A stretch of 63,385 nt of DNA, filler included, from Lenisia limosa (Eukaryota; Protista; Breviatea): assembly GCA_001655205.1 (NCBI GenBank). It is 14 parts of 14 records of this genome, joined end to end, with 100 filler letters (N's around TTAATTAATTAA, not from the genome) between each part and the next. Parts side by side here need not be neighbours in the genome. Positions count along the whole stretch, not along the records: positions 17,789 to 21,489 come from LPNZ01003323.1; positions 21,590 to 26,330 come from LPNZ01004588.1; positions 26,431 to 31,252 come from LPNZ01006046.1; positions 31,353 to 33,827 come from LPNZ01007536.1; positions 33,928 to 36,500 come from LPNZ01002678.1; positions 36,601 to 38,332 come from LPNZ01004683.1; positions 38,433 to 42,811 come from LPNZ01006192.1; positions 42,912 to 44,752 come from LPNZ01006544.1; 6 more parts are not named here. One strand, written 5' to 3'. Within the stretch, counting starts at the first letter, position 1, and each line of letters opens with the position of its first letter. The notes below the pieces were generated by a model, which saw only the letters and a program-made list of their open reading frames with translations, made no database searches and was not told the origin of the DNA. Shown piece by piece: positions 19,185-55,560 of the stretch. The position numbers and the translations under genes are program-made.

Positions 19185-21301
19185 ATGGGTTACGTTGGTA
19201 ACTTTACCAACCATCTCAGCTGTCTGCTAACTAAAGACCTTTCTTTAGCTCTGCGTCTCTACGTTAAAACCCTTATTTCTGTACTCTTACCTGTGATTCT
19301 TATAATATGCGGATTCTACAGTATCAAATATACGGAATCAACACAGAATGCCCCTTCAAGCTTCACGGCGTCCTCAAAACCCTTCGAGTGTGAGCCCTAT
19401 CGTAACCTCTTCAATGATACAGCAGGTAGGGTAGTGTGGGGGCGTGATATAACTATATTGAGACTGATAATTTTGCTCTCTGTTTTGTGATTCCCTGTTC
19501 GATCTTGTTTTGTTCATTCTGTTTTCTGGGAAAGTGTTAATCCTCCAAATATAAATGAATGCACTTCATTTTATTGAAGGAATAAGATGTTTTAAGTGGT
19601 TGATATGGCAGAAAGCAACTACCTGTTGGACTGTGTCCCTCTGCTTGTGTCACAAAAAACGGACCAATCAGTTGGAATTGTCAAGGTGGGTGGGTAGAGA
19701 GTTGGATGGTGATATTCACGTGTATATATACACTGATACTGGCCTATTTATATATGTATAGTGACTGTGATAAGTCTTGTTTCGTTAGGAAACCACATTA
19801 CAAGTTGGTCACAATGTTTATGTAAACTTGGAAAATTTATGGAACAAAAAATAAAAACATTTATTGCTTTCAGATATAATCTTGTGTTTCTCATATAATC
19901 AAGTAGAGGCGACCTTATTGTCCATTTCTCAATGCTAAATTTATAGGCGGCAGCAAAGATGGGCGGCTTCAGCGAGGAGGCAGCGGTTTATCTTGATAGT
20001 GAAGATCAATTTCTTGATGAGGTTGGTCTAGGAGTGGGTGACACGCATATTGGAAATATTAAAGCTTGGAGTTGTTTTCCTGTTTTTATTCTCTCTAATG
20101 CATGCTTTACCCTCTATTTGGAAGGCTCAAAAGAATCTGAGCCTTCTTTTGATAATAATAACGAGCATTTTTAGCTTCTTTAAATGCCTTACCAGTAACT
20201 CACGATAGTCCCCTCCTTTATATTGCTGGCAATTATGCTCCTTTTTGACCAATATAGATAAAGTCAACTTAACCATCCCCAGATTGGGAATCGAATGTAT
20301 AGCATTGACCTCTTTTTGTTATGATTGAGAAGAATGCCCTCAAACAGCTTTAACTCCCTTTAGATTGGGAAGCGAATGGGAAACATTGCCGCCGGACTAA
20401 GGCTCGGTGTCACGCATACCATTTTTGTGGCTAATCAGCAGTTTGATGACAGCCAGGTTGGAGGAAGGGCAAGGGTGATTTCTTGAATGCAAAACCTGCG
20501 CTTTCGCTGTCTTGAAAATTGAACACAAAACAGCAATATTCTATGAAAAGTGTTTGCATATCTTTTTTCACGACAGCGAATACACGATTACCGTGGTGGA
20601 TGGTATAGATCAAAGATCATAATTATATGATATATTTCCTTCATCGGTCAAATTAGCGACCATATAACTTGATTACCTGTATAATCCCCTCATCTTATAT
20701 TGTTTTTTTTGGATTCATGTGTATCATATATGTTATCTCCATTTTCTCCCACCCAACGTAGATGATTATTTTTCTGTCAGGTCATCCATTTTCAACTGAG
20801 TTGATTTGGACTTTTTTGTTGCGTAACTTTTCCAATTTCACCCNNNNNNNNNNNNNNNNNNNNNNNNNNNNNNNNNNNNNNNNNNNNNNNNNNNNNNNNN
20901 NNNNNNNNNNNNNNNNNNNNNNNNNNNNNNNNNNNNNNNNNNNNNNNNNNNNNNNNNNNNNNNNNNNNNNNNNNNNNNNNNNNNNNNNNNNNNNNNNNNN
21001 NNNNNNNNNNNNNNNNNNNNNNNNNNNNNNNNNNNNNNAATCGCTATCGCCAGTGAGGCTTCTAAGGACTTCGATGTTGGGGGTGGTGGTATTGTTTTGT
21101 GTTTAAGTGTTGTGCAGAGTTGAATTTGGGCTTTTATTTTTGTTTCGTAGAGTTTTCAATTTTCGTGATTATTTTCTTTGAGCCATTTCGTCACGAAATT
21201 CCTTGTTAATCCCCCATGATAAAATTTCACCCCATAGTCGAGCAACCTGGAAGTTGAAGTTGAGTATCTTTCAACAGCTTTCACCAAACTGGGCGATTCT
21301 G
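19185..21301 (+). CDS. ABCA-transporter-like N-terminus (TM1 plus first ectodomain), 3'-truncated at a spacer
   Basis: Exon 1 NHLSCLLTKDLSLALRLYVKTLISVLLPVILII resembles the ABCA N-terminal pattern LLxKNxxLxxRxxxxTLxExLxP. In-frame exons follow (VVDMAESNYLLDCVP..., AAAKMGGFSEEAAVYLDSEDQFLDE, IGKRMGNIAAGLRL). No nucleotide-binding domain is present in the window. Confidence 0.5.
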
Positions 21302-21334
21302 GTGAGTGTCTGGGAATGTGTATTGGGGTATACC

Positions 21335-21433
21335 CAGGGCTTCACACGGTTTGAAGAAAGACTGAATTTCTCGATAAATCCTCGAAAACTATCGATATTT
21401 TACAAGTCTTTTTCGAACAGAAGTGAAGCACTA
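21335..21433 (+). mobile_element. hAT-type MITE copy
   Basis: CAGGG...CACTA ends; flanks GGTATACC / GGTATAGT (6 of 8 identical). Confidence 0.85.
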
Positions 21434-21642
21434 GGTATAGTGGTTGTTGTGGGTTTTCAGGTGAGCTTCAATATATCCTATTATTCAGTNNNNNNNNNNN
21501 NNNNNNNNNNNNNNNNNNNNNNNNNNNNNNNNNTTAATTAATTAANNNNNNNNNNNNNNNNNNNNNNNNNNNNNNNNNNNNNNNNNNNNATTTCTTGAGG
21601 GACTATTTTTCTCTTGAATCCCCCCCCCCATCACCAGTGCAG

Positions 21643-24600
21643 GGTTCGGAGACAAGCGATCGTCTTCAACACTCGCGAAATGAAGTTCATACCCGTCAAC
21701 ATCTTTGTGCTTCGCCGCTACCTGCCCGAGTTTTCGTCGCTATCGTTCTGCATTCCTCGAGTGCCGCGATGCCGCTTTTTCGCCCACAATGTTGGCACAA
21801 CAGGTAAGCATCGGGTGTTGAGCTTTCTAGGGGGACGCTCTGTGGCTGTAATTATAATAAACCGTGCAATTGTGAAAGTGTAAAGCCAATAAAGTCGTTT
21901 ATTTTTTTGGATTTTATATTTCTATTTTACCTTTATTTTATCCCTTATGAACCGCCAGAGCCTGAGGTTTTACATTATACATTAACTTGTTGTGATGACT
22001 CTGAAGAATATTACATTTGATAAAATACACTAATGGTTAATGGTGTTACCTGTGTCATGATTCAGGGTTTTGTTTTGTTCCAACTTTACCCCCCCCCCCC
22101 CNNNNNNNNNNNNNNNNNNNNNNNNNNNNNNNNNNNNNNNNNNNNNNNNNNNNNNNNNNNNNNNNNNNNNNNNNNNNNNNNNNNNNNNNNNNNNNNNNNN
22201 NGAGACGCCAATCTTGTCGCTTCTAGGAATAAACTACGCTACACTTCCTTGGTGGGGACGATATATTCTGAAAGCTGCGTATTGTTGTGCTAATCAGATT
22301 AGCTTTCTTTTTTTCTTACCGTCTTGGCGCTATTCACCCCTCCCCCCTCTTCTATTCTTGCCTTCAGTGCTGCTAAGTCTGAAGTATTATTATATTGGTG
22401 ATGTATTCTTTCCTTTTCTTATCAGTTTATAACTCACAAACTCCGGATGACGGTGTGTAGGAAGTCATGAAGAAGGTAACTGACAATGTGCTCAGTGTTC
22501 AATTCAGAGAAAGCCTCATGAAAAGGAAGATCATTGACCTGGTCTTCTCCATCCCTTGCCCTTATTTCACGGTTTGCTACACCTCAAGCTCTGACTGTCG
22601 CTTTCAAAACACTGTGAAGTTGAACTTGAACTTAAAGCATCTTGTTTTGTTTTATACTACTACTATCTGATAGAACAACATTGTTGTATATTTTTAGCAA
22701 TATTGATTCCAGGCTTTTTCTGATGATTTAGATGCTATACAGTACGGTCTCTGATCCTGGTACTGTAATGTAAGTGGGGCACTTAATTGTTTATTGAGTT
22801 TATAATCATAGAGTAGTAGTAATACATTGGGGTAACATAAACCAACAAATACCCCTTACGTCGCAGTCCAAGTGGACGCAACTGGCGAATTGAAGACATT
22901 CAAGCTTCTTCTTTCGAGATCGTCGTGGGTTGGGAAGGAAAACGGGCTGAAGATGTGTTTGTTTTATTCGTATATTAAAGGATTTTGATTATATAGCATC
23001 AAATAGGATTATCCATGATGATACATTTTGCTTGTATTGTAACCATTATTTATTGTATGTTTGCACTATCATAACCTTCCAGCAATCGGATGACATTGAT
23101 ATGGCAAACCTTCCTCCCGGTATGCGAAGTTTTGAAGAGTGGATCCATATATCTATTATGTTACCAAGGGGCTTCAATGTTTTATTATCAAACATCTTGC
23201 ATGAATGTTTCTGACGTTGAAGCCGAGGAATCTGCGCAACTTCGCTACGGTTCAGTTCACGCTGGTGTTTCACAGATCCTTGCCGAACATCACTTCATTT
23301 CTCTGGGGGTACGGCGGGAACAACTACAATACCCCTGTTCATGTGGTAGCATTATCTCCATTGTTCCTGTATTCCTAATGATCCAGCTTCTGAACAAAAA
23401 GTTCTCAATGAGCACCAATCGTCTCAACAGAATCATTGCCTATATGTGCTACAAATGGGGCTATGGTGAGTGGATGTTTATCTTGACTAAACACCAATAA
23501 ATGTTTGTTTCTCTCTCGTTACACTGTGTGTACATCCCTGACACAACTTTTAGGAGTATTTGATCGGATCAACTCCACACCTGTCTACCTTCGGCCGACT
23601 GAAAAATTGCCCCATCTTCCCTTCAAAGAAAAGCCGCCAGAGAATACTGTGAGCTCAACCATGGACTGTAACATTGACAAGATATGATAATTCGTTGTAT
23701 TCATTGATCGTTTCGCCCTTTGAGTTGATTTGGGCTTTTTGTTTCTTATTTTACCCCCCCCCCCCNNNNNNNNNNNNNNNNNNNNNNNNNNNNNNNNNNN
23801 NNNNNNNNNNNNNNNNNNNNNNNNNNNNNNNNNNNNNNNNNNNNNNNNNNNNNNNNNNNNNNNNNNNNTACAAGGCAACTCAACCCACAACTCTTCGATC
23901 AAAAACAGTTGGTGGATCAAACATAGCTATTCTTCATCTGTCTTACTTCATTTTCTGTGACCCTCTCAATTCATAAATAGATAGCTTTATAATAGTGAGT
24001 CTTTCCTGTGGTACCAATTACATATCAGTTGTTTTTATTTGGTTTATAATCACGATCTTTACGTTCATATACAGGTATGTATCTTAGAATTTTCTTGTGA
24101 CTTACCCCGTTAGGGTGGAGGTAATCAACAAAGAGAATGAGGAACCTGGTGAAAGCAGTCAGCGTTTGCCCCGTCCAACACCAGTACGCTAGAAGATGGG
24201 GCTCACCTTAATCGGGAATAAAACTGGATTCAGAAACACTAATCGATATCTTTGTTTGTCTTTGTTGGACATGAGAAAGCCTCAAATCTTTCAATTTTTG
24301 TAACATAATATTGCTTCGTGATTTCCATTTTTCTTACCTCCCAGTTCTATCAACGGACAATGATGCTCCGAGGAAGCGGTGTTTTTGACGAGTAAGAGGC
24401 GGTTTATCGCAAATTACAATTATGGACTCTTTTTTTGAATGGATTTCACCCAATAGCCCTTCAAAGTTCCTGCCATCCCTGCTGCGCGCTCCCATCATCA
24501 TGCTTCCCAACTCCGACATCCAAACCCTTGTCAACCGGAACTTCTCACCCACACCGTGTTCTAATCAGGCTGCCATTTTGCCCATTCGAAGTGGGGGGAG

Positions 24601-26296
24601 GGTGAATGTCGTGAAGGGTAATCACAACATACCGATCACGTCAAATAAGTAGTTTGTGCCAATAGTGAATAAAAATATTCAAATGTAGTACTGTGTTAAG
24701 GTAACAAATGACAGTATTATAAGCTCACTATGACAATAATAACCATTGTATTTATGTGACGTTGTTCAAAAATACGTGGGATTCACTGATTCTCACCACT
24801 CACTAGGAGCTGTTCTTGTCTCCGAAACAGTTGAGAGCACCGCAGCAATTGGAAGAAGTAGGCATTTGAATGAAGGCATTGTATTAGTTTGACGACTTAC
24901 TGTGAACCTGGCCATGGGTTCTGAGATTTACTTTAACCTAAGGACTCTTGAGCATTATTCAATGTTTTTCAGACGGTGGTTAGCTGTAGTGGTCAGTCTC
25001 TATATACAAGTAGACATCTATTTTGGCGAATTTTGGCAAGTCTGTTTACCCCCCATGGGATGCGGNNNNNNNNNNNNNNNNNNNNNNNNNNNNNNNNNNN
25101 NNNNNNNNNNNNNNNNNNNNNNNNNNNNNNNNNNNNNNNNNNNNNNNNNNNNNNNGGCTACATGATCTACGTCATGGCTAATAACGAAATTGACTACGTC
25201 AAAATAAAAACAGACTTCAAAGGTACGTCTCTTCTTGTTCTCTTTTTTATTTCTTCTTTTCATTTTGGGACTTACTTTGCTTCTTTTTGAGAGACAAAAT
25301 TGAATCTTTGATCATTAGATGGTATTATAAGATTGTTGAATTTTCCATCTCTTTTGGCTTTTCAATTCACTCTTTTCTCTTTGCCTCCATCGATTGATCG
25401 TTATGATATTGTAGACAAAGTCATCACCCCCTTGGAGCTACTGAAGGGCCTGTCTTTTGGTGAGTTTGGAAGCTGTCATCAGTGGGTGTATCTTATCCAT
25501 CATGATATGATATATTGGCTCCATTAATGTGGGGGTACGCAATAGTGTATAATTCGATTTGACCAGAAGTATTATTAAAAACAGGAAGCATAATTCTGAT
25601 GTACTATGGGTGTGGGGGTTCACTTTTCTTTGTTGTTATTAATGTGACATTTTTTATCCATTTCTAGCCAAAATTGAAGCCTTGATCCAGCTGATTGAAA
25701 ACGAAGGCGCTACGTACATCAGGAAGTGGTGAGTCATTTTTTTTTATATATATACTATATATATATATATACTTGGGAGTAGTACATAGGAACTAACTTC
25801 ACTAATAAAAACACCAAAAGGATTTAGCTTTTATGACACTACTTTCTGCCAGACACAATCTTGTTTTATTTTCTCAAGCACACAATATATCTCCCTTTCA
25901 GCCCAATTTACACCCCCAGTATTCCGCTGCGAAACAAACGCAACTTAAAGTCACTGAGCGGTTGGTTGCATTCAATTGACTCTTATGCACACTTTACTCA
26001 TCTCAGTCTATGCTGATGTAATAGTGATAAAAACTGCATAATCAACTCCTTAATCGTTATTGCCTTCAAGAGGGTTATGGAGCATGATGATCAAGAGGGT
26101 TATGGACATCATGATCAAGAGGGTTATGGACATCATTATGATCACCAATAACTGTTCTCTGTTATTTTGCCCTCAGCTTACACCATTCAGACCTGTGCGT
26201 GGACGATGATACTGATGGAGACAGCTGCAGTGAGACCAGCGAGTCGGATTCTGGGGAGGAAATGCGCAAGCCAAAGAGGAAGCCCAAAAGGAAAAA
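21643..26296 (+). CDS. Multi-exon gene, possibly a divergent TFIIIC tau95 (GTF3C5/Tfc1-like) subunit, both ends incomplete
   Basis: Phase-consistent exons give ...VFSIPCPYFTAFSDD...SDDIDMANLPPAEE...VSQILAEHHFISLGLLNKKFSMSTNRLNRIIAYMCYKWGYGVFDR...SDIQTLVNRNFSPTPCSNQAAILP... and an acidic/basic segment DDDTDGDSCSETSESDSGEEMRKPKRKPKRK. Motif order recalls GTF3C5 (PPPxFS, winged helix LxxxxxxxxYxxxxGPW, Cys-containing C-terminal segment, acidic tail), but identity is low. Confidence 0.45.
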
Positions 26297-26500
26297 GTTG
26301 GGTTCTCAGCACTTTTGATACCTTTTTTCANNNNNNNNNNNNNNNNNNNNNNNNNNNNNNNNNNNNNNNNNNNNTTAATTAATTAANNNNNNNNNNNNNN
26401 NNNNNNNNNNNNNNNNNNNNNNNNNNNNNNCTTGCTAAGCAAACGTTTTGACTAATTCCCTTGTTAAGCCATTGCACCGTCCTTACTAATTCCAATGTAG

Positions 26501-27911
26501 AACTCATCGCCGAACAACAGTCAAGGAAGCAGAGGCGAGGCGGCCTTCCCCTCAATGGGCATGTCAATGCAGTCAGTGCAGGTATGTTGAGAGCAAGAGA
26601 AATATCTAGGCTTCGTGCAATTAATTGAAAAATAATTGCAAAATATGAAGTGAGACATAGAAATAACCCATATCCACAAGTGATAACTGTTTCTTTTATT
26701 TATAAAATAATATATTTACGGTAGGATGTGGTGGGCTTGGTTTTGTTTGTTTTGTTGTTCAACCCTTGTATGTTTCTCAAATGTTGTTATTTTGTATATT
26801 CTTCATCGAAATTTCCTTCGTTTTCAATCAATTTTACTTCGTTTTATCTCAATTTCNNNNNNNNNNNNNNNNNNNNNNNNNNNNNNNNNNNNNNNNNNNN
26901 NNNNNNNNNNNNNNNNNNNNNNNNNNNNNNNNNNNNNNNNNNNNNNNNNNNNNNNNNNNNNNNNNNNNNNNCAGAGCCCCACTGCCAACTTCCAAAGTGG
27001 ACAACAGCAGCAAATGAGCCCTCAAATGCAACAGCAGCAGATGAACCCTCAAATGCAACAGCAAATGAGCCCCCAAATGCAGCAGCAGGTGGGGGTAGAT
27101 GGGAAGGATTTTATTATAATTAGGGCTTCACTTCGGTTCAATAAAAGACTGAATTTCCCGATAAATCCTCGAAAACTATCGATTTTACCGGTCTTTTCGG
27201 ACGATAGGGAAGGGAGGGGCACTATTATCCAATATTCCGCCGTTTTGACCGTTTTAGAGTGCAGTGGCCCAGAAGGTGAACGACTTGCCCCCCAACAAAC
27301 GCCAGCAGCTCTTTGCGCAACTCAGCCAATTGGTTGGTGAATACTTCTTGAAAAAGAGAAGTAATACATTAAAAATCTTGGGAAACAAATAAATACATAG
27401 GGATACCATAAACACATTAGGTGAATATGTCGTGATTGGTGCTTTTGCAAAAATTCTTCATTCATCAAAATTTCCTTCGTTTTGCCTCTTTTTTCCATTC
27501 AATATAACTTACACCAACAATATAATATCTCTAATTTTCTATCCCCNNNNNNNNNNNNNNNNNNNNNNNNNNNNNNNNNNNNNNNNNNNNNNNNNNNNNN
27601 NNNNNNNNNNNNNNNNNNNNNNNNNNNNNNNNNNATTCATAAGTTTCCTTTTTTTTACTGGTGTATTTGGTTGTTATCAACCCTCGTGTGTCATCAGCCA
27701 ACTGAGTTGATTCATATGTTTCCTTTTTTTTACTGGTGTATTTGGTTGTTATCAACCCTCGCGTGTCATCAGCCAACAGAGTTGATTTTGGGCTCCTCTC
27801 CCCCCCTTTGTTTTACCCCCTTTTCAGATGACCCAAGGCAAGCCGCTGAACCCTCAGCAACAGGCGTTTTACCAGTACCTCTCACAGCTCCAAAGAGCTG
27901 GCCAGCTTTAG
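26501..27911 (+). CDS. 3' part of a Gln/Met-rich low-complexity protein
   Basis: Exons NSSPNNSQGSRGEAAFPSMGMSMQSVQ; QSPTANFQSGQQQQMSPQMQQQQMNPQMQQQMSPQMQQQ; SAVAQKVNDLPPNKRQQLFAQLSQL; MTQGKPLNPQQQAFYQYLSQLQRAGQL* (stop 27909-27911), with GT-AG boundaries where visible. Confidence 0.75.
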
Positions 27912-28224: not shown

Positions 28225-31047
28225 TTAGCAAAGCTTGTAGTTTGGATAGGTGTCATCGGCCCCGTCGTTTTCATCGGTGAAGTTCAGAATTTGGCTAAAA
28301 ATTGAACTCAATTATGTATTTTTCTGTAAATCATGTAATTAATTTTTGAGGATATTACTTGACAAAATTTGAAATGTAAGATCTTAAATATGTCTCACTT
28401 CAAAATTTCAAAGTTGTTTCAATTAACTGCACGGAGAATGGATTTTTTCATATCCCTAGATTGTTTATTCTTCTTATTCTCGAAAATCATTTATTTTAAC
28501 CCCCGACTACAATATACGGCGCATCGACTTGGGATTCTTGTGAAAATGTTGATTTTGAATGGGAATTAAATTTAAACATTAAAACCCCCCGGCCCCTCAT
28601 ACTTTAGTAAGTCAGTGAAGGTGTCGAAGGCAGGACAATACGCCCACCCGTCTCTCATCTAATCAATCAAATCTTAGACTACGTCCAATGAATTAAAAAA
28701 TTAATTTCAAAAGAAGTGGGCATATTAGAACGAGAACCCTATTCCACACTTTAATTCCTATTTGTGTCAATTGATTTTCTCAAAAAACTAAGTGCAAGTA
28801 AATTGTAAGTTTTCACTAGTTGGCTCCAGAAAATTTTTTATTTTTAAAAGTTAAAATGATTTTTAAACAGTTCTTAAGAGTATTTCAGCATTTTTAGGTT
28901 TTTGATTTATCGCAATATGAATTTCTTTTCAAACACTTTAGTTTCAAATTCCGTCAATAAATTGCCTCATCAATTGCCCGTGGAAAAGAACAGTTAAAGG
29001 TCCTGAAAAACTGATTATTTTAGATAAATTTTAGATAAATAGCTGACCTCATTTACTACAATCTAATATTTCTAATATGTGAATGGCTTCGTTCAGATAC
29101 TATAATCTAATATCTCTCATAAGCATAAGCGTGATGGTGTGGCTTGTTTTATTTCTCATCTCTAGTACAGCAGATGTAATGTACTGCCATTGGGGCTTCA
29201 TTTCGCTTCGAAAAAAGACTGAATGTCTCGATAAATATCGATATTTCCCCGTTTATTTTTCGAACCGAAGTGAAGCCCTAGCTACAACCCAATATCGGCT
29301 GACTTGCACCGAGTCTACCCCAACCTTTTCTTGGTCGAGGGTGACGATGGTAGGCTTCTTTTTATTGCGGAAGTCAACAGCAAACCTACCAGGGGCGTAA
29401 AATTGATGAAATGAAGGGTCATAGGGGGGGGGGGGGGNNNNNNNNNNNNNNNNNNNNNNNNNNNNNNNNNNNNNNNNNNNNNNNNNNNNNNNNNNNNNNN
29501 NNNNNNNNNNNNNNNNNNNNNNNNNNNNNNNNNNNNNNNNNNNNNNNNNNNNNNNNNNNNNNNNNNNNNNNNNNNNNNNNNNNNNNNNNNNNNNNNNNNN
29601 NNNNNNNNNNNNTCCATTCCTCAACCATGTCCTTGAGGTCTTCAATTGTTTCATCACTGAAAGGATCAGAAGGCCATCATTGCAAGGTACATGTATTATA
29701 TAGCGAAATATGATGGAACTAGTACTTCACCTCGGTTCAAAAGAAGACTGAATGACTCGATATACTATCGACATTTCCAGGAGTTTTTTTCGAACCGAAG
29801 TGAAGCCCTAACACTTATGTCCGATACCTTACTTTGGCAATTAATCTTGTCAAGACCTTATTTAAAAGTAGCAATTCAATCAAGATACTACCGACCTTCA
29901 TAAAAGAACAAAAAAAAAAAAAAAATTTTGGGTACGTATGTGAGAATTAGGGCTTCCCTACGGTCCCAAAAAAGACGGAAATTCTCGATAAAACCTCGAT
30001 AAATATCGATATTTTAACGGTCTTTTTCGGACCGTATGGAATCCCTAGTGATATAAGGGCATTCAAGTCTGGATGAATATTGGTACTTCAACAGTGTGTA
30101 TGGGTTCTAGTCCCCCAAGCACCGGTATTTTTCGAACTGAAGTGAAGCCCTAGTTACATAAATTCGGTCATTTCAGGAACCGAAAACGAAGTCCTAATTA
30201 GCGCCTCACTTCGGTTCGAAAATATTAGTAAAATATCAATAATTTTCGAGGATTAATCGAGAAATTCAGTCTTTTTTCGAACCGAAGTGAAGACCCAGCC
30301 CTAATACTGGGTATCGCCAAAGGACGCGATTCCGTGGATTTCGCAGTCCGCAACCCATCCTCCGTTCTTGAGATTTCCTGGGGGGGGGGGGGGGGNNNNN
30401 NNNNNNNNNNNNNNNNNNNNNNNNNNNNNNNNNNNNNNNNNNNNNNNNNNNNNNNNNNNNNNNNNNNNNNNNNNNNNNNNNNNNNNNNNNNNNCACCACA
30501 TCCCATCACTCGGGGAGTGAGTGAAACGATGGGAATTTCGAAGATGAATATTGGCTTAAAGGTACAAAACTCCAAACAAACAACAACAGATACGAGCAAC
30601 CAACGAACACGACAAAAAGAAGATAGACAAAAATACAAAACAAGCCCAAGCCAGCTTAAATTTCCATGTTCAAATCAATACGGTTGGCTAGAAACACACT
30701 AGAGTTGAAAACACCCACCAACCTCCATCCTGGATTTCCATTGCGAAATTTTTCATGTCCTCAGGAATCTCAAATCCGTATAAATCTTCAATTTTCTGGC
30801 GGTGGGGGGGGGGGGGTAAATTGGAAAATTTCGAAANNNNNNNNNNNNNNNNNNNNNNNNNNNNNNNNNNNNNNNNNNNNNNNNNNNNNNNNNNNNNNNN
30901 NNNNNNNNNNNNNNNNNAAATTTTTTTCGTTTCATCAAATTTCATTTCATTAACAAATTGAGTCTTTATCACCACCCAAACCTTGATGTCATCGGCAGTG
31001 GCACGATGCTCGGTCACTTCTTCAAAAATGTCTTCCGCGTAAAATGT
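28225..31047 (-). CDS. SUKH / SMI1-KNR4 family protein, spliced, 5' end uncertain
   Basis: Exons 31047-30982, 30795-30723, 30377-30308, 29656-gap, ~29385-29325, 28658-28603 and 28294-28225 translate as ...HRATADDIKKIEDLYGFEIPEDMKNFAMEIQDGG...IHGIASFGDTHDETIEDLKDMVEEW...FAVDFRNKKKPTIVTLDQEKMRDGWAYCPAFDTFTDLLNQIL...YKLC*. This fits the SUKH pattern AT..I...E..LG..LP.DY..F....NGG ... D.......P.V...D.E ... F.EFL. Confidence 0.8.
30199..30297 (-). mobile_element. hAT-type MITE copy beside a splice donor of the SUKH gene
   Basis: Flanks GTCCTAAT / GCCCTAAT (7 of 8 identical). Confidence 0.85.
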
Positions 31048-31493: not shown

Positions 31494-33375
31494 ACGTTGC
31501 CTCCAATTAAGAAACCCGTCTCAGGTACACAGACTGAACGGTCTGTCTGTCCCATAAGAAAATGTCCAGTGTTTTCCGGACATAGAATGCACGAAAGTCC
31601 GTCAACACCGTATTCGTCTGTGACGTTAAAAACATATACTCACCAATCATTTTAAGATGGGGGCCTTAGTCTAGTTAAAGCCAATCAAGATACAAACTAG
31701 AAGAAACTATGTCATCCTTTGTGGAATTCAAAAGATTACCCCCCGACCCCCACCCTCCAACAGAAATATCAGATACCTAAAGCTTCACTTCGACCCAAAA
31801 ACAGACTGAATTTCTTGAAAAATCCTCGAAAACTATCGATTTGGTTTTTTTGAACCAAATTGAAGCCCTGCAACTACCCCCACCCCCCAACTATTTCCGC
31901 AATTTTGACATGAATTGGCAATATTGAACTGGCCTGCAGGACAATTACCGCACATAACNNNNNNNNNNNNNNNNNNNNNNNNNNNNNNNNNNNNNNNNNN
32001 NNNNNNNNNNNNNNAAAAAAAAAAGGAAAATTTGTGAAAAAAACACCAAAATTTACTCTGCTGGTTGACAACAACACAAACAAAGACAAGTCCAACCCGA
32101 GGCCAATCACAAATCTATCCGTAATTCTCCCCACCCTCCAAAACCAACCTAAACTTGACAACATAGAGTTGGGACACTCGGTCAGGGAGTTAATCAGTCC
32201 CCTAGAAGGAAGATTCCACGGGACTTCCACGCAGCCCACAGCAGGATGTACATAGTAGTTTTCAGGGCATTGAATACAGGACGTTTGGTTGTTATTGGGC
32301 ATTGACCCTGATGTGTCAGAACACGAATATGTTGAAATTAGATTAACACAACATACAGCATAATCCAGTAAAATATCGATAGTTTTCGAGGATTTATCGA
32401 GGTTGTATCTTCACGAATACGACAACAACACCAAGAGATACTAGTGAAAATAAGAATAGCTAAGAAGCAAAAAAAAATGGGGCAGGTTTATGAACAGTTT
32501 TTGTATTGAGCCTTCAAACATAGGTAATCATTCACAAAACAGAAAAACAATCAAACCAATCACCTCGATTTAATAGAGCCAAAACCACGCCAACCTGACG
32601 CGCAAGGCGTGCACGTGTTTCCTGAAACTGCCGAATTCGGCGGACAAAGCATACAGCGTCCCGGGTAGAGGGAATGATCCGCCACTGTACCGTCTGAAGA
32701 AGGTTAAACAAAATATGGTTCTAAAAGATCGAGAGTAAGAGAGTTATAATGGGTGCTAGGCAATAGTCATAATTGGGTGTCAGGAAATAGTCATAATCGG
32801 TTGTCAGGAAATCCATTCAGAGAGCTGCATCTTTTTATGAAGACAAAGAATGTGACTGAAATAAAAAATGAACTTTGATCGATACAAATAAATACAAAAC
32901 TATTTCTCATGTTTAAGGCTTCCCGACAGTCAGAAAAAGACCAGTAAAATATCGATAGTTTTTGAGTATTTATCGGAAATTTCAGTTTTTTGGGACCGTA
33001 GGTAAGCTCTACTTGTGTTAACAACCGCGACCAGACGAACCATTTAGATCAATTTTCAGTGATCGGAATGTAAGTCTTGACCGATTTTTCTTGTGAAATC
33101 ACATTGCAAATCGGTCAAGACTTATCCCAGTCACTGTATATATTCACAGTCTGTCAAAATTGAAGACCTTATATAACCGAAACCTATTTAGCGTAATCGA
33201 TAACTTATGGTATTTGTTTATGCTATCCCTATGTATTTATTCGTTTCTGTTTTTCTCTAATATTTACTGTTGAAACAACGAAGGAAATATGTACCAAGAG
33301 AAAGCAAAAGTCATTCCTGAATACATACCAGGGCAGTCCGCTTTGGCAGTGGACGAATCGCTGATGTAATACTTT
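31494..33375 (-). CDS. Fragment of a second Cys-rich (GCC2/GCC3- or furin-like repeat) extracellular protein
   Basis: Exons translate GRCMLCPPNSAVSGNTCTPCASGW (32693-~32570), TSCIQCPENYYVHPAVGCVEVP (~32300-32150), CGNCPAGQFNIANSCQNCGN (~31955-31895) and NEYGVDGLSCILCPENTGHFLMGQTDRSVCVPETGF (31617-31494). Confidence 0.75.
31778..31870 (+). mobile_element. hAT-type MITE copy
   Basis: Flanks CAGATACC / CAACTACC (6 of 8 identical). Confidence 0.8.
32914..33011 (-). mobile_element. hAT-type MITE copy (TIR variant B)
   Basis: TAAGGCTTCCCGACAGTC left end; flanks CTCATGTT / CTTGTGTT (6 of 8 identical). Confidence 0.8.
33057..33136. mobile_element. Tc1/mariner-type MITE (family 3)
   Basis: CAGTG...CACTG termini with TA on the right flank; perfect 17-bp inner inverted arms TAAGTCTTGACCGATTT (33071-33087) / AAATCGGTCAAGACTTA (33108-33124). 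Confidence 0.75.
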
Positions 33376-35850: not shown

Positions 35851-36719
35851 GTAAATCTGCCACGGCGTGTTTCGATGCAACCCGGAAGTGGACTGGTTTG
35901 GGGGGACGGAATATTCTGGAATTTGGAATATTGGAATTTTATTTTTTTTGGTTGGGGGAGTATTCAAGTTTTTTTTCAATGAGGATTCGCAAGAGTCTGG
36001 AATGCTGATCGAATGATATTTTTGTTATATGCTCTTTTTTTTATCATTTGACCGCGGAAGTCAGTTATATGATCGTATTGCTAGTGGATAGGGCACACCA
36101 TTTCGAGATATCACAAGTTGATACATCATTAGTGGATGTGGACATTATTTTACTTCAACAGCAGCTCCAATGAAGGAGCGAACAGTGAAGTCCCCATCAA
36201 CAATCCTGAGTGGTATGCAGGGGGACTGTGACACGTAATTATTTGTACCATATTTTGTCATAGTTGGATTTGGGGTGCTATTTCTAAAACTTCATCCCAC
36301 TTCGGGTGACCAGGTGGGACTCTGCTCGTATTTGTATTTATATCATATGCCCATGTGTGTTTTTGCTTGTTTTTGACAATTACCCTGGAGTAATGGGATA
36401 GGGTGTTGCAGAAGCGACTGGCCAGGGCTTTGTTTGTTGTTGTCAACTCTCGTGTACTGCGAGCCAACATATATATATACATATACAGTGTATATATATA
36501 NNNNNNNNNNNNNNNNNNNNNNNNNNNNNNNNNNNNNNNNNNNNTTAATTAATTAANNNNNNNNNNNNNNNNNNNNNNNNNNNNNNNNNNNNNNNNNNNN
36601 TTTTCATTTTTTTGCAAGAACACTCTGAAAAACTCCTTTGGTCTCAGGGATTCGACGTGTTGTGGAATTATGTCACATTTTATTCAGTTGCGAAATGACG
36701 TCGGGGGGACCGATGTATG

Positions 36720-42371: not shown

Positions 42372-43757
42372 GTATATAGAAGTATATACATACATGTAGT
42401 ACATATCAATGTAAATGAGTGTGTATTAGTCTACCACTTGTTATGTTATCGAGCTATATCCATATCTAGTTATATTGAAGAATTGCCAAGCAGGTTTAAT
42501 ATAATAGTAGCTATATGATATATTATTACGCTGGGTTATTCATGCATATAAATATGGCGCAAAATAGTTTGGAGGGGGGGGGGTTCTACCTAATCATTTC
42601 AAAAAAAGACTGAATTTCTCGATAAATCATCGAACACTATCGATAATTACCAGTATTTTTTGAACCGAATTGAAGCACTAGATATAATACATTGTGTGGA
42701 GGAATTGGAGTATTGGAAGTTTGAGAGGGGGTGGAGGGGGGCACAGAAAGCAGTGAAATGATTTGTTGTGTTGAATATTTACTATAATCGGCTTCGGCCA
42801 GATACAACCTTNNNNNNNNNNNNNNNNNNNNNNNNNNNNNNNNNNNNNNNNNNNNTTAATTAATTAANNNNNNNNNNNNNNNNNNNNNNNNNNNNNNNNN
42901 NNNNNNNNNNNAACTAGAACGGGAAGGTCGGCAACACCAGGGTTGGCTCGGTCGACTCGCAATGATACGGCCTGGTTGTGAGGGTGGGGGTAACATTTGA
43001 ATTTAGCAACAAAAAGCCCAAATCAACTTTGTTGGCTGACAACACACAAGGGATGATAACAACAAAACAAACAACGCCCGTTCATGAATCAAAAAAGAAG
43101 TCTGTGTAAGGTCTTAAAAATATAACATGGTATTAAGGGGAATTACTCATGTAAAGGGCTTCACTTCGGTTCAAAAAAGACCGGTACAATATCGAGGATT
43201 TATCAAGAAATTCAGTCTTTTTCGAACCGAAGTGAAAAAGATGTATGATCGCATGAATACTAAACATACGAGGGTTCACCCTATCCAATCCCCTCCCCCC
43301 CCCATCCAACCTTTCCTTCCGGTTTTGTCCACTTCAAGTAAAACTCATCAGAAAGAAACTCGAACGATCGTGGCGTGTGATGGTCGCTGCTGGTTTCGAC
43401 GTCTGAGACCAGTACAGCCTTGTGACTGCACTTCACTTCCGTCATCCCAAGATGTAAACTATGTCTTTCTTTTCGGCAATTTAAGAGGAAGAAAGATGAA
43501 GAAGAGGCCCAGAGAGAGGCCTTGGATTTGGAGAATGAAAGCTTATAAGCTGCGCCTGCGCCACCGTAAAACACTTTTGAACCACAATTTTAAAATTTCA
43601 GAGGTCTTTCGGAATATAAGTATAGGTACAACAGCTTATTAACTTTTCTAATCACTGATCTTTTGTTTTAATAAATGTGGTCTTGTGGAGGTGGATTTTA
43701 AGTTATTAACCCACTCTTTGCTCTTTCCAATAGTTTTAACAACCTTATATTATCAAA

Positions 43758-44752
43758 ATGGTACAAGTTATGCAGCCTAAGCTCCAGCTGGAGCAGGAAT
43801 ACGATTCCGATCTTCTCTTTTTTGTGAATGGCAAGAAGGTGAGACAATGGTCGTAATGTCGCTGTTCTTCTCGTATACCATCGTAGTACAGTTCCCAGGG
43901 GGTTAATTCCTCTCAATTTTGATTCTCTTATTATCTTTAGCACGTTGTTCGCGATGCTGACCCCGAAATGACTCTCCTGACCTACCTTCGCACTAAGGCC
44001 GGCCTTACTGGAGCCAAACTCGTCTGCGGCGAGGGAGGATGCGGTGCTTGTGCCGTTGTGCTGAGCCGCTTCAACCACCAGACCAAGAAAGTGGAGTTAG
44101 TGGGGGTGTTAGCGTGAATTATGGGCTAGGAGAAGGCCTCAGGCGCTTTCCCTGCGATGTATCATCTGAGTGCATCATTCAATCTTCTGGATCAAATCTT
44201 CTGCCTTTCCCTCTCTGGGCTGGATGGAGGAAAGTGTCCTGGATTTTGACAGAAATGAGTAGGAATTATATAGGGTGAAGCTCGGTTGTGAACAAAAACA
44301 AGATATGTCAAATATACAATCATCACATATCAATTGATATTTCTTACAAGTGTGAATCCAGTATCTCTTACAAGTGTGATGGTATGGATGACTTCGCTCA
44401 GATACTAGAAATCAAAATCTCTTATAAGCTTGTAACCACTGTTACTTTCATAAAATACACTGCAGCTTGACTTGTCTAAATATGGGGTAGACTTATGGAA
44501 AACGCCTGTGCGAAAATTGGCCTTTTTTATTTTCAGATGTGGGTGATTAAAGGGTTTTTTTGGAGGTTGGACGGTTTATTAATTTTGATGATGTGGACGG
44601 CTTCGGCCAGATAAACCCTTTTAAAATGTGATGGTGAAAGTTCCTTCGTTTTGCTCTTTGCTGTGTTTTGTTGTTCTCAACCCTTGTGTCCCCTTGAATA
44701 TCTTCCAGGATCCGAACTTGCAATGCATGCCTGCCCCCTCCCCCTTGTCTTG
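43758..44752 (+). CDS. XDH: Xanthine dehydrogenase / aldehyde oxidase N-terminal 2Fe-2S domain, 3'-truncated at a spacer
   Basis: Exons 43758-43838, 43941-44095 and 44709-gap give [53 protein letters not shown]...IRTCNACL, the classic XDH/AOX Fe-S motif. Confidence 0.93.
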
Positions 44753-46559: not shown

Positions 46560-49136
46560 NNNNNNNNNNNNNNNNNNNNNNNNNNNNNNNNNNNNNNNNN
46601 NNNTTAATTAATTAANNNNNNNNNNNNNNNNNNNNNNNNNNNNNNNNNNNNNNNNNNNNCCAAATAATGTGAGGGGGTGGAGAGTAAAATTGAAAAATCT
46701 ATGAAACAAAACTATAATAAGAAGACATGGGGGAATTAACTAGGGCTTGCTGAAATCCCAAAACAAAAAATACAAAATTCTCGATATATATCGATATTGT
46801 ACCTGTCTTTTTCGGACCGTAGGGAAGCCTAAGTGAAAGTATTCATTTTGGTAGGAGTTGATTTTGAAGTTTAACAAGAATTCTCTTATGTCCCATATTA
46901 ATTTCCGTCCTTCCCCCCCCCCCCNNNNNNNNNNNNNNNNNNNNNNNNNNNNNNNNNNNNNNNNNNNNNNNNNNNNNNNNNNNNNNNNNNNNNNNNNNNN
47001 NNNNNNNNNNNNNNNNNNNNNNNNNNNNNNNNNNNNNNNNNNNAAAAAGACTGTTTAAATATCGATGTTTATCGAGGGTTTATCAGGAGATTCGGTCTTT
47101 TTGGGGACCGAAGGGAAGTCCTAGTTCGGTCATCCGAACCTAACCGAAATGAAACACTATCCTCCAGCTGTTGGAATTACCGCTTTCGTTTTTTATTAAT
47201 TTATTAATTTTCTATTTTTTTTTTATTATTGTTTTTTTTTCATATTTGTCATTTTCCTTACCCCCGCAGCTATCAAGGCGCTCTCATGTCCCAGCGAAAG
47301 AGGTCAAGGTAGATTCACGGTGTAATATGGTGGAAGAATGTGAATGTAACGCGAAAGATTCCGAGGTAGATTCCTAGTGAAATGGGTGATGGGAATGTAA
47401 GACAGATTCAATATAATATGGTTTATTATGAATATGAATGTTACGTACGTTTCATTGTAGATTCCGAGATTGGGTGTAATATGGTGGAAGTGAATACCAG
47501 TCCCACCGCCACGTGTTTTTTATTATTCTCTACCCCACAACACCTTCATCTCTTCATCATCACTGCTAATTTCAAACTTGTTTTTATCCTTCTTATTTTC
47601 TTATCTGGCAACTTATTATGTTCTAAGAAATCAATTATTGGGTTTAACTCTTCATTCCTCTGCGTTTTTACTACAGATATGTCCACAACCGTTTTTATCT
47701 TCCTTCTTCTCCCTTTCCTTTCCTCCATCCCTATTATACAGATCCAAAAGCGGCCGGAAATAAAAAAAAACCACACTCACGGGGCATTGAACTGAGGTAG
47801 GTCCGGGAATGGAAGTGTCAACCAACTGGACTAGGAACAGACCAGAATCGGACTTAAGGATCCCGGAATTCCATTTCAAAACTCAGAACTCCGACTTCAG
47901 GATTTTGAAAGGGGTCTGGATTTTCTAAAAATAAGGATGTCTGTCACGTTGATCTTCCTAATATGGCAAAATAGGGTGTTTTTAAAAAAACAGGATGGTA
48001 ATTCACAAAATCGGCTCGGATTTTCTTTCAATTTTCTCTAAGATTGGCACAAATTGAACGTGATTAAAACCAAAACTTGGGGTCTTTCAAACTGATGTAA
48101 TGGAAGATGAACAAAAATGTAATTCGTTTCAAAGAAGGCGTCTGAGAAATTTTCACAGCATCCGTGACAATTTTCTGAATTACCACCCTGCTTTATAACA
48201 CTAAAAGAATTTCGAAAAAAAAATTCCCGTGAAAAAGCAAAAAGAACCCCCCCGGGTGACCAAATTCACGGATTTTTTCACCTTTGCTCAAAATTTTAAA
48301 AAACAAGTAGTGAAATATTTGCTATATGTGTGAGAACCTGCCCTCACTCATTTAGAAGGCAATGGATTCCTAACTATCCCAGTCTCCTCACCCCTAAGGA
48401 GTTTAGCCCTTCACTCTACTTATTATGTATTCCTTAATCCAGTCTATATACGACGTACACTAGCCTGAAAACTATTCACAACGGGTGGTTCCTTTGAGGC
48501 TGTGGTTGGCTTCTCCCTCTTGTTGAGCCCGCGGGGCCTGTTGACATATGGTCGAAATATATTTCTAAAATAACGCAAACATACAAAAAAGGGCTTACTT
48601 CAAGCTGTTCGGTGATTTTGAATGTTGTCCAAAGCTTTGAGGACCTCATATATTGTCAGTGGTCATGGATTTCTTTAAAAGATGGCCAGAAGCTTCGAAT
48701 CTGGTTAGGAAGAAGATGGAGGTGGTGTTGCAGCTTCTTGAGGCAACGCATAAGACCACAGCACCATATTATGCGAGGGGAATGAGTTGGTGGATCGTCA
48801 CCACATTCTTTGTTGGGCCCTCCCCCCATCACCCCCGGCAAGTGGAAGTTCCTGTTTGTTAAACAAAACACGGACTGGTACCCGTAACCTTATTGTTGGA
48901 ACATCTCTAGGCCCTAAGCATGCATCCAGATGACAATCCCACTCTCTTTCGTCTCTAATATAGCCAACAGCACTCAATATGATATCGTATCAAACATATT
49001 CACAATAAACATACATCTTCTACATGATATCATATATTTGTATACAATGATTATTATTGAATATTGAATATTGAAGGTAAATATGATAGTGTGTGGATGA
49101 CATAAAACGGTAACTACTGTAAAGATGCAAAATAAC

Positions 49137-52647: not shown

Positions 52648-53870
52648 AAGTCTCACAAGAAAACAATTTTGCGCTAGCGCCCTCCCCTGAGCTCCTCCAC
52701 CCCAACATGGACACCCAAAGTGCGGTCAGCGCTGTCTCGGCGGTTTCGGCTGTTTCGTCAAGGTCCTCGCACTACTCGGATGCCAGCTCGTTCATGCCCA
52801 AGGTGGACTGGATTAGATGTCTATTATGGGGAGGCACGCAGAAATCTGTGCACACAGAGTTGTCAGGCAAATGATTGGGTGAATTAATATTATACTATAG
52901 TCCAATATCTCTTGGCTTCGGCCAGATAGATATAAGCATAATGTGTGTGTTTGATGGTACATGTTATACTAAATGAAGTCTCCATAATAGCTACTTCGTT
53001 TTTTCTATGTTATATCATAATATTGTATTAATTATCATTGATAAATATTTTTCTGGGGTAGCTTACCGTTGTAGCACGTTGCCCCGATTCCACAGCCAAT
53101 GCTGATGCAGCAGAGATCTGGTGGGGGTTCTTGTTACCATATGTCACACTTTCAAATTCAAAATTCATTAAATTATAACACTTTAAAATTCAAAATTAAT
53201 TTCTCAATTAACTGCTCGGTCCACGTTTTAGCTGTATATTAATCTTGTTTTTTGACATTAAAGACGCAAAATAACTTAAAATGTTTCACACATTCCAGGA
53301 GTAAAACGCCCCCCTATGCCCCCGGGTGCTAACTGGCCCACATCCCCTGCAGTAACCGAGCCACGTCCGAGAAAATCCCTGCATTTCCAGAGTTCCGACA
53401 TTCAGATGATTCCGAAGCATAGCAGCGTTCATTCACAGTGGGGGTATTTATTGCTCTCGTTATTAGGGCTTCACTTCGGTTCAAAAAAATGGCCGGTAAA
53501 GTATCGATAGTTTTCGAGGATTTATCGAGAAATCAGTCTTTTTTCGAACCGAAGTGAAGATCTAATCGTCATATTATACAGTGACTGGGATAAGTCTATG
53601 ATTTCCCAAGGAAATTCGGTCAAGACTTATCCCGGTCACGGTGTGCTGGGCAGGCACGCAAAAAGCTATGTGAAGGTTAAAGCAAATGATTGGGTGAATA
53701 AATAAATCCAATATCTCTGTGGTGGTGTGTACGGCTTCGGCCAGATACNNNNNNNNNNNNNNNNNNNNTTTTTGTTTCATAAATTTTCCAATCTTGCCCC
53801 CCCCCCCCATTTCCTCACGGCATTTCAGGGCGTCATCAGTAGAGAGCGCTTCCAATGCGGACAGTCACAT
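52648..53870 (+). CDS. Ser-rich low-complexity protein, internal fragment
   Basis: Phase-consistent exons: EVSQENNFALAPSPELLHPNMDTQSAVSAVSAVSAVSSRSSHYSDASSFMPK; HVAPIPQPMLMQQRS; VTEPRPRKSLHFQSSDIQMIPKHSSVHS; ASSVESASNADSH. Confidence 0.65.
53464..53564 (-). mobile_element. hAT-type MITE copy
   Basis: Flanks CTCGTTAT / ATCGTCAT (6 of 8 identical). Confidence 0.85.
53579..53641. mobile_element. Tc1/mariner-type MITE (family 3)
   Basis: TA|CAGTGACTGGGATAAGTCT ... AGACTTATCCCGGTCACGG; arms match at 17 of 19 positions. Partial relatives near 19759, 41694, 54001 and 54895. Confidence 0.75.
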
Positions 53871-53894
53871 GTGGGGGGAGGGGGGGGTTATATG

Positions 53895-53993
53895 TAGGGC
53901 TTCACTTAGGTTTGAAAAAGATCGATAAAATAGCGATAGTTTTCGGGGATTTATCGAGAAATTCAGTCTTTTTTAACCCGAAGTGAAGCCCTA
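53895..53993 (-). mobile_element. hAT-type MITE copy with a perfect 8-bp TSD
   Basis: GTTATATG|TAGGG...CCCTA|GTTATATG (53887-53894 and 53994-54001). Confidence 0.95.
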
Positions 53994-54463
53994 GTTATAT
54001 GGTCACTGTATAATAGAAATAAAATCCAAAGGTAGCTAATCTAGTACATACTAGGGTTTCACTTCGGTTCGAAAAAAAGACTGAATTCCTCGATAATTCC
54101 TCGAAAACTATTCCTATCATCACGTCCAAAGTCTCCCAAGTCTCCTATCATCAAGTCCAAATACTCCTATCATCACCCCTACCACTATTCAATCATTTTT
54201 GAAAAGGGAAGCTCTCGTGAATATTAAGGTCTTGGGCTTCACTTCGGTTTGAAAATTTATTGATAAATCCTCGAAAACTATCGAGATTTTACCAGTCTTT
54301 TTTGAACCAAACTGAAGTNNNNNNNNNNNNNNNNNNNNNNNNNNNNNNNNNNNNNNNNNNNNTTAATTAATTAANNNNNNNNNNNNNNNNNNNNNNNNNN
54401 NNNNNNNNNNNNNNNNNNTTTGTGTGTTTCATAAATTCCAATTTTACTCCTCCCCCCCCCCAC

Positions 54464-55560
54464 GGTAAATTCGTACTGTCCGGGCCGGAGCAAGGAAACG
54501 TCCGGGACATGCAGAACCGGAGCCGAGAGGACGAGAACGGAGCCGTTTTGGTACTTGCATTCCTCGTCAAGTCCTGGGTTACCGCAGCACTGGTTGGCCT
54601 TAAACTGTTCGAAGAGGGAGTCGTTGTCGCTTAAGTAGGAGCACCTCATCCTGGAATACGTGAATTTAATAAAGCTAGCCCCTCTGTTTGATTTTATGTG
54701 TTATCTCAGGGTTTTGTTTCAACTTTGTTTTTCTATTAATTAAAACAGTATTCAACCCCTCCCCCCCACGAAAGCGATCCGAGTTCACCAAGCCAGTCCG
54801 AGCCAGTTACATTCACAAAAATGGGTCCTTCCGACATTTCGGAGGCAACCTCCCCTGTGACCTGGGGGTGGGGTAAAATGGAACTTATGAAATTGTCATT
54901 TCCCAAGGAAAATTGGTCAAGACTTATCCTGGTCACTTAGCCCTGTAATTCTACACCCCCCCCCCNNNNNNNNNNNNNNNNNNNNNNNNNNNNNNNNNNN
55001 NNNNNNNNNNNNNNNNNNNNNNNNNNNNNNNNNNNNNNNNNNNNNNNNNNNNNNNNNNNNNNNNNNNNNNNNNNNNNNNNNNNNNNNNNNNNNNNNNNNN
55101 NNNNNNNNNNNNNNNNNNNNNNNNNNNNNTACAGAAGAAACCGGGAAAGTGGAAGAAACAGAAAAAAACGGAAAACGGAGTAACATATTTTTTTCAAAAA
55201 CTGTTCTTACAAAATCAACTAACAATAAAAAATATGATATAATATATATTTATATACTATAAATATATGAAAATATTAATACTAATACACACACACATAT
55301 ATTAATAATATTGATAAGAATATCAAATAATATCAAATGCCCGTAGCTCTATTAAAAACAACAAAAAAACAAAGCCAGGCCAGTTGCTTCTGTGAGTCTC
55401 AATAATACCTCCCACGCACCCTTTGGAAGTTGACGACCGCGTCGGAAAGATGCTTAGACTTGGCGACAACACCGGTTCCGGAATAGGAGAATGTGAGAGG
55501 ACGGGCCGGGTCAGTGGCGCAAGTTGAGGCAACCGTGAGGGGTTCAAGGGCTGCCAGGCC
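54464..55560 (-). CDS. Fragment of a probable extracellular beta-rich protein
   Basis: Exons 55560-~55420 (LTVASTCATDPARPLTFSYSGTGVVAKSKHLSDAVVNFQR), ~54860-54770 (VTGEVASEMSEGPIFVNVTGSDWLGELGSL) and ~54632-54464 (DNDSLFEQFKANQCCGNPGLDEECKYQNGSVLVLSAPVLHVPDVSLLRPGQYEFT), with GT-AG boundaries. Confidence 0.7.

Follow-up and report, generated by a model that had tools for sequence, protein, structure and literature searches.

The window, meaning the whole stretch of 63,385 nucleotides (nt) of the breviate Lenisia limosa analyzed here (GenBank assembly GCA_001655205.1), is eukaryotic, has a GC content of 39% and is dense in introns. It also holds a short repeat, hereafter family A, that lies in introns of unrelated genes and, in 12 of the 75 introns curated, leads into the predicted acceptor. 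The window contains 52 runs of N. At 15 places, for example at 38333-38432, a 100-nt spacer of the form N44-TTAATTAATTAA-N44 is found, in which TTAATTAATTAA stops all six reading frames. Genes are cut at these spacers (XDH ends at 44752 and a different gene picks up at 44853), so the pieces on either side are probably unrelated and neighbourhood across spacers is not trustworthy. The other N gaps mostly adjoin G or C runs.

Several host genes had been named in an earlier sequence-only reading. XDH was confirmed by homology. The gene called CKAP5 shows weak HEAT-repeat matches for one exon, but homologue searches with its exon 40623-40751 found nothing. TBL2, SUKH, ABCA-like and galactokinase are presumed labels, unconfirmed and without a Pfam match.

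Two sequencing runs of one study contain the window stretch: X1, used as unitigs and possibly the source sample, and the RNA run X2, which covers the stretch sparsely, with a share of just 0.08, and whose contigs matching A could be DNA or unspliced RNA. Further copies came from G001, a bacterial genome bin reached through an exact 25-nt A pattern that matched one of its contigs. Scans with exact patterns gave no hit in viral contigs, none in metagenome contigs and this single one in genome contigs. Six G001 contigs (C39, C43, C46, C56, C67 and C69, i.e. L007 to L012) are eukaryotic, intron-bearing and carry the repeat families of the window, which points to contamination of the bin; 49 further small G001 contigs (183 kb) hold no A copy.

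Family A is a genuine, high-copy repeat

The A unit is about 145 nt long and consists of a G-rich head, GCAGAAGCGAC, a TTG-rich stretch, the core given in the earlier reading, GAGTTGATTTGGG, a T-run, TTTTAC and a C-run. The unit of ~110 bp proposed earlier therefore has to be extended 5' to the G-rich head, and the majority base at 39731 is corrected to C. We built a profile from 12 seeds (8 from the window and 4 from G001; the E-values of seeds are circular). It matched the window 23 times at E<=0.5 and 22 times at E<=0.1. With 11 matches in G001, a total of 33 were obtained at the stricter threshold; end positions were defined from 33 local copies. About nine further short or gap-hidden pieces lie in the window, and the first 20.7 kb contain no copy. 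A single window copy used as query retrieved 12 others at E<0.004. The profile gave no match at E<=0.5 in reversed sequences and none in 210 kb of unrelated sequence from 80 XDH loci. Identity to the consensus is 74-100%, for most copies 80-94%. A sequence was present at all six places quoted earlier; the two on the minus strand (30797-30836 and 54861-54895) are too short for the profile, but score 38 and 33 against the A tail, above a background maximum of 22 (27 acceptors).

Summed X1 depth at 39731 reaches 469,497, against ~20 in single-copy flanks, a ratio of ~2x10^4, summed depth not being a copy number. The local density of one match per ~3 kb is of the same order of magnitude, and the genome likely carries ~10^4 copies. 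X1 unitigs with a depth of ~20 cross A-to-flank junctions with 0 differences, so that the junctions are not scaffolding artefacts. We give next to no credence to the idea that A reflects low-complexity convergence of polypyrimidine tracts or an artefact of assembly. The tail is indeed rich in T and C, and the assembly breaks at G/C runs, but the alignments extend over 100-140 nt including complex sequence, the controls were empty, and both the X1 unitigs and the G001 assembly carry A. This reading is refuted for the core, while the shortest tail-only pieces may be convergent.

An inverted-repeat element of 2.3 kb (L007:1420-3750) interrupts the middle of an A copy; A is therefore older than that element. 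Also in L007, the exon after one full copy opens with about 14 nt resembling the A head, which is either chance or a clue to the origin of the unit.

Most family A copies in genes are sense, and many lead into predicted acceptors

We compiled introns manually, guided by reading frames and junction motifs. Among 91 listed, 16 unclear or join-cut ones were removed and 75 kept, 63 of them with both ends visible. By profile, 12 of the 75 end in A, whose U-rich tract and C-run lead into the predicted acceptor, and 20 contain a sense copy. The earlier statement that copies run into the acceptor is corrected in that not every copy reaches one. With the tail score added, 17 of the 40 visible acceptors outside two background genes are A-type; in these two genes, the 27 acceptors that set the tail-score threshold include none with a profile match. 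Reading frames are continuous across 39797, 40620, 41361 and 42267 and between the exons flanking the L008 copy, from which we infer that A-terminal AGs serve as acceptors. Between the C-run and the AG lies a spacer of variable length (0 to 20 nt), which would fit an AG that in many cases comes from the host.

Orientation is strongly biased. Among the 31 matches inside genes, 29 are sense and two antisense (p 5e-7), the remaining two of the 33 lying outside genes; a control family of miniature inverted-repeat transposable elements (MITEs), family B, gave 20:17 when oriented by its asymmetric core. The sense preference reported from sequence alone is borne out by this comparison.

Introns ending in A are longer than the others (median 350 vs 137 nt), and a near branch motif (YTRAY) is present in 1 of 12 of them vs 25 of 53 others (p 0.02). 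G-rich donors accompany A (14/24 vs 6/47, p 1.5e-4) as well as C-rich acceptors (p 8e-5), the introns being clustered by gene in both comparisons. Pairing of donor and acceptor within individual introns was rejected as an explanation: p was 0.02 overall, but 0.11 when the first gene was left out and 0.5 within the C-rich acceptors, so that the association is compositional. Exonic AG before donors showed no difference (6/20 vs 20/51). At 46669 and 54463, antisense A tails form G-run donors, with scores of 48 and 43 vs a background maximum of 22-25. A model with an antisense arm at every donor, as terminal inverted repeats (TIRs) would give, was discarded, since these two cases alone are clear; the scores of another four or five (23-29) are close to background. 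The genome appears to run two acceptor architectures side by side.

Family A shares features with introners and differs at the 5' boundary

Introners, as described in Gozashti 2022 (PMC9860276) and Gozashti 2025 (PMC12130899), resemble A in being short non-coding repeats common to introns of unrelated genes in a single orientation. Roy 2020 (bioRxiv 10.1101/2020.10.14.339549) indicates that the introner-like elements of Symbiodinium carry a 3' splice site, as A does. Unlike introners, A reaches the 3' boundary only, is 5'-truncated, forms tandem stacks and lacks the GHNN/CT..AG pattern of target-site duplication (TSD) known from Symbiodinium, seen at 0 of 12 A junctions. The mean local score is 11.0 for the 5' parts of A-ended introns vs 11.4 for other introns, and 23.0 for the 3' parts of A-ended introns. 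A significant match to the A head was seen downstream of just 1 of 71 donors. None of the 12 A-ended introns has a junction repeat of at least 4 nt (range 0-3 nt), which agrees with the absence of a TSD noted before; a TSD or TIR is typical of most, not all, introner families. The self inverted score of A is 15 vs 15.2 for shuffles.

Intron positions in XDH were compared by spliced alignment with 80 metagenome loci, chosen for best continuous match and hence biased against introns; 19 of the loci gave a candidate intron, several of these being spurious. Intron 2, which contains an A piece, interrupts the same codon in the same phase as introns of three loci (L097, L103 and L108); the position of intron 1 is common to L101. 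Gene models of fish XDH have breaks close to these two positions, an indirect comparison. According to PMC8301430, XDH exon 3 starts at c.101; the end of human exon 3 was not found in the papers searched on XDH variants and intron positions. The A piece in intron 2 is 28 nt long, tail-less (E 9e-4) and 19 nt before the acceptor. Judged by its position, XDH intron 2 is probably an old intron colonised by a tail-less A piece, in one case. Shared positions, which the sequence-only reading had said would mean colonisation rather than intron creation, are found for one intron with a partial copy.

Because similarity reaches the 3' boundary only, junction repeats are absent and the position of XDH intron 2 is shared, A is not an introner by the features tested, though the few short introns made up almost wholly of A may stem from an older phase of intron creation. 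Of the two activities proposed earlier for this mobile family, rebuilding of 3' ends fits and creation of introns mostly does not. It seems unlikely to us that A descends from an earlier burst of true introners, whose G-rich head gave or recruited the donor and whose tail gave the acceptor, in introns that later grew through MITEs, deletions and nested copies. Such a history would suit the stretches of A, or resembling A, that lie no more than about 50 nt from the donor in introns 32148-, 30722-, 21076+, 55415- and L010 2086-, the enrichment of G-rich donors in A-containing introns and the divergence of the copies; young A-only introns could lie hidden in N gaps, and many published families lack both TSD and TIR, according to PMC9860276. 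It is opposed by the rarity of head matches at donors and the empty junctions, by the least diverged copies, all of which end introns of 225-410 nt with unrelated 5' parts, and by XDH intron 2 probably being older than its A piece.

Family A may spread by priming at splice-site C-runs

At the head, the A unit is covered by 5 copies, a number that grows to 26 near the tail. The 3' end is kept in 24 of the 33 copies, the 5' end in 10 and both in 7. This 5' truncation with an intact 3' tail is as found in short interspersed elements (SINEs), although selection could mimic it. Of the 14 copies in which a 5' part is kept, 7 come immediately after an A-like tail or a C-run (the C-run criterion has a background of 4.4%), and by eye, truncated copies start just past an older AG at 22058, 41271 and 55966. 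X1 contigs from elsewhere in the genome join an A tail (6) or a T-run (5) to an A head, the intervening letters not being known. The family E module at 45311-45379 carries the same TTTTAC and C-run tail as A.

Tail anchoring, 5' truncation and same-direction stacking match target-primed reverse transcription of the Alu type, and A can therefore be read as a non-autonomous SINE-like element. We tentatively favour, with somewhat less than even confidence, that its C-rich tail primes insertion at intron-end C-runs and replaces the acceptor regions of existing introns. A single rule, insertion at a C-run with a polarity given by the strand that bears it, would account for the truncation, the stacks, the antisense tails at donors and the variable spacer. 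The target would be a C-run: before an acceptor it would receive a sense copy, and opposite a G-run donor, on the other strand, a rare antisense one. Copying would begin at the tail, with target-primed reverse transcription by some long interspersed element (LINE); each insertion would leave a fresh C-run as target, giving head-to-tail stacks, and selection would eliminate copies that land at a distance from the acceptor.

Known elements offer partial parallels. Alu inserts into tails of A residues and can supply splice acceptors. SINEs such as Alu share with family A the 5' truncation, a simple-sequence tail, same-direction stacking and use of the tail as polypyrimidine tract; A differs from them in its C-rich tail and its sense position at predicted constitutive acceptors, and no tRNA, 7SL or 5S head, TSD or partner LINE was found. 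Some non-LTR (long terminal repeat) retroelements target repeats, TRAS/SART the telomere repeats and Waldo/Mino AC repeats. In these, as proposed for A, a simple-repeat target sets the insertion polarity, whereas the target of A would be a splice-site C-run and no coding element was identified. Lin et al. are said to have reported in 2016 that intron ends of fish are paired by AC/GT repeats. Such introns and stwintrons resemble A in the complementary composition of their ends and in new sequence nested at a splice signal; in A, unlike these, pairing is not intron-specific and there is no sign of a nested spliced intron.

Several observations weigh against priming at C-runs of existing introns. 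Assembly gaps account for some of the truncations, selection that retains a functional tail could explain the 3' bias just as well, and the manual assignment of gene strands drew in part on the repeat itself for a few short pieces. LINE-mediated insertions usually leave a TSD; around the few near full-length copies (6-17% diverged), none was convincing by eye, and none was found at junctions. As to a polymerase III head, no tRNA, 7SL or 5S Rfam match at E<=5 was obtained in 36300-43200, and no tRNA, though a decayed head could escape. No reverse transcriptase was seen in the window; one match in G001 was of the bacterial group II intron type, and a second (C21) was not read. The literature searched contained no C-tailed SINE. 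In X2, whose 24 contigs on 38433-42811 give sparse cover, no junction at an A acceptor was observed, the run covering none of these acceptors. Some short introns are nearly all A or A-like (32148-, 30722-, 21076+ and L010 2086-). The shared-position test concerns one intron with a partial, tail-less A piece, and for this XDH intron 2 an alternative acceptor, 44640, is top by alignment (248 vs 244 for 44708); 44708 was chosen because it keeps the conserved NACL motif, which 44640 loses.

Two other modes of spread were weighed. A could instead be a SINE or MITE of the usual kind, inserting at any site within introns, with its sense copies at acceptors owed to nothing but selection. We regard this as unlikely. 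Some copies do lie mid-intron, in antisense (2/33) or outside genes (2/33), other small elements crowd these introns too, and exaptation of Alu as splice sites is textbook background, but random insertion predicts many harmless antisense mid-intron copies, of which 2/31 were seen while MITE B is balanced in the same genes, and head-to-tail stacking requires targeting. We find it distinctly improbable that A spreads as DNA, through breaks at G-quadruplex-prone G/C runs repaired by C-run-anchored ectopic copying between intron ends. Such repair would suit the fixed 3' anchor, the variable 5' ends, the lack of a TSD and the patchwork character of the junctions, as well as the numerous short tandem duplications found at splice sites (39412/39458, 27659/27734 and three times at an L008 donor); a defined head recurring in at least seven copies suggests a discrete unit instead, and about 10^4 copies from one source are hard to reach by conversion alone.

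Two classes of DNA transposon were tried and rejected. As a TIR MITE, A would need inverted termini, which it lacks; its ends pair in one copy (41123-41270, z -2.6, 1/4 folds) and not in the youngest. A Helitron would have a 5' TC, a 3' hairpin with CTRR and an A|T target, whereas A shows 0/12 downstream flanks beginning with T, no strong fold (z -0.8) and a variable end that is the 5' one.

Table 1. Positions of family A copies, selected introns and other repeat families. Basis: profile match, tail score, or identification by eye.
Feature	Position	Strand	Basis	Remark
A tail third (3')	20793..20843	+	profile	enters assembly gap; exon beyond gap
Decayed A-like stretch	21100..21150	+	by eye	directly after G-run donor 21076; weak, E about 1
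A tail	22058..22101	+	profile	enters gap; starts just past older AG
3' third of A	23722..23765	+	profile	C-run enters gap
A head	25056..25065	+	by eye	directly after C-run; remainder presumably in 90-N gap, exon next
5'/middle A piece	26726..26774	+	profile	followed by E module
Middle of A	27659..27712	+	profile	first unit of 75-nt tandem duplication
A	27734..27827	+	profile	at predicted acceptor 27827
Probably full, gap-hidden A	30378..30512	-	by eye	head, 98-N gap, C-run + AG; right after older C-rich end
Middle of A	30668..30713	-		starts 9 nt past donor 30722
A tail	30796..30836	-	tail score	at predicted acceptor 30796
Diverged A	32015..32129	-		forms the bulk of intron 32148-~31960; gap hides acceptor
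5' 60% of A	36384..36469	+	profile	truncated by a TA repeat and the end of the contig
3' part of A without C-run	38108..38159	+	profile (E 0.44)	15 nt upstream of acceptor
Older 3' half of A	39620..39661	+	profile	head-to-tail, immediately upstream of 39672 copy
A, 5'-shortened	39672..39797	+	profile	C-run + AG = predicted acceptor, intron 39570-39797; frame resumes in next exon
A with internal deletion	40525..40620	+	profile	at predicted acceptor 40620
Near full-length A, G-rich head	41120..41270	+	profile	C-run plus spare AG at end
Second tandem A, 5' half decayed	41271..41361	+	profile	at predicted acceptor 41361
Antisense A	41515..41627	-		56 nt inside donor of intron 41459-42267
3' third of A	42207..42267	+	profile	at predicted acceptor 42267
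A	42972..43080	-	profile	at predicted acceptor of minus-strand gene
Middle A piece, 28-30 nt	44660..44689	+	profile	ends 19 nt before XDH intron 2 acceptor
Antisense A tail	46669..46707	-		its C-run read on + = G-rich predicted donor 46669
Decayed 3' part of A	46855..46924	+	profile	C-run enters gap
A-like tail	47225..47269	+	tail score	at predicted acceptor 47269
A tail	53769..53828	+	profile	then 20 nt, then predicted acceptor 53828
A tail	54419..54463	+		antisense to minus-strand gene; C-run = that gene's G-run predicted donor 54463
A tail	54862..54897	-	tail score	predicted acceptor 54862; ~105-nt intron = G-run donor, D fragment, tail
5' piece of A	55352..55396	-		22 nt past donor 55415
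5'-truncated A start	55946..55966	-	by eye	right after older C-run + AG; remainder in gap
Ordinary GT-AG intron without A	40120..40236	+		sole junction (40119-40237) seen in RNA run X2
XDH intron 1	43839..43940	+		phase 0; no A
XDH intron 2	44096..44708	+		phase 2; contains A piece, two C copies, E module
Family B examples	29944-30048, 38914-39016, 53465-53565; L008:354-453
Family C examples	38691-38822, 52839-52947, 56520-56643 (-), 59540-59641 (-)
Family D	33060-33140, 53580-53640, 54895-54940			intronic
Family E	45311-45379, 30505-30581 (-), 26770-26838, 27425-27497, 44613-44659

Other repeat families

Family B is a palindromic MITE of ~100 nt with TAGGGCTTC ends, found at 42 window loci and in G001 contigs, with a depth ratio of ~2x10^4 and no strand bias. 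An 8-nt target duplication is visible at its L008 copy and suggests the hAT superfamily, to which we presume it belongs. Family C is a repeat of ~130 nt with a small GGC-TTCG-GCC hairpin and a T-run end (20 matches, depth ratio ~4x10^3). It is sense-biased (12:2, p 0.013) and often lies in the 5' half of introns. Homology between A and C was rejected: the score of 20 is not significant and was equalled in 91 of 500 shuffles. Family D is a MITE with CAGTGACTGGGATAAG ends, and family E a second 3'-end module with six window matches, all of them profile seeds, so that its extent is provisional.

Short tandem duplications of an exon end with the donor, or of an acceptor with the exon start, were seen at 39402-39434/39448-39480 and 20263-20300/20345-20380 and at L008:279-345 (donor type, three times). 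L009:150-1170 is a DDE_1 transposase remnant, and a related element lies within an intron at L008:840-2640. A long gene for a Cys-rich membrane protein and a Ras-like gene (1500-14700 and 61295-62280) carry no copy of A, B or C, and their introns are short and AT-rich, the repeat load being patchy by gene.

Implications for intron evolution

Literature on introners, on introns of breviates and L. limosa, on G- or C-rich intron ends and on acceptor-colonising repeats, with most subscription journals outside its scope, described no such family. Introner screens demand similarity to both boundaries and drop secondary insertions, as stated in Gozashti 2022 (PMC9860276) and Gozashti 2025 (PMC12130899). 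The former covered annotated GenBank genomes and aquatic partial genomes, and an unannotated protist assembly may be outside it.

It is conceivable, though doubtful, that A is a retroelement with splice-site C/G runs as its specific target, which supplies new target with every insertion and has rewritten the acceptors and some donors of thousands of pre-existing introns, producing a second intron class. If so, this class would combine a G-run donor, a U-rich tract and a C-run acceptor without a near branch motif, and A would be a "splice-site replacer", of the kind that introner screens exclude by design. About 4 in 10 visible acceptors (17/40) in the repeat-rich genes trace to A, compared with 0/27 in two other genes.

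The usual view is that splice signals change gradually, one base at a time. Colonisation of existing introns would be an undescribed route for mobile DNA to rewrite them, and if mobile DNA overwrites the 3' splice regions of old introns genome-wide, turnover of splice signals can be saltatory. Sequence similarity among introns would then not need to mean intron gain. With both intron types in one genome, the accommodation of a new acceptor architecture by U2AF and SF1/BBP could, if this is true, be tested directly in L. limosa.

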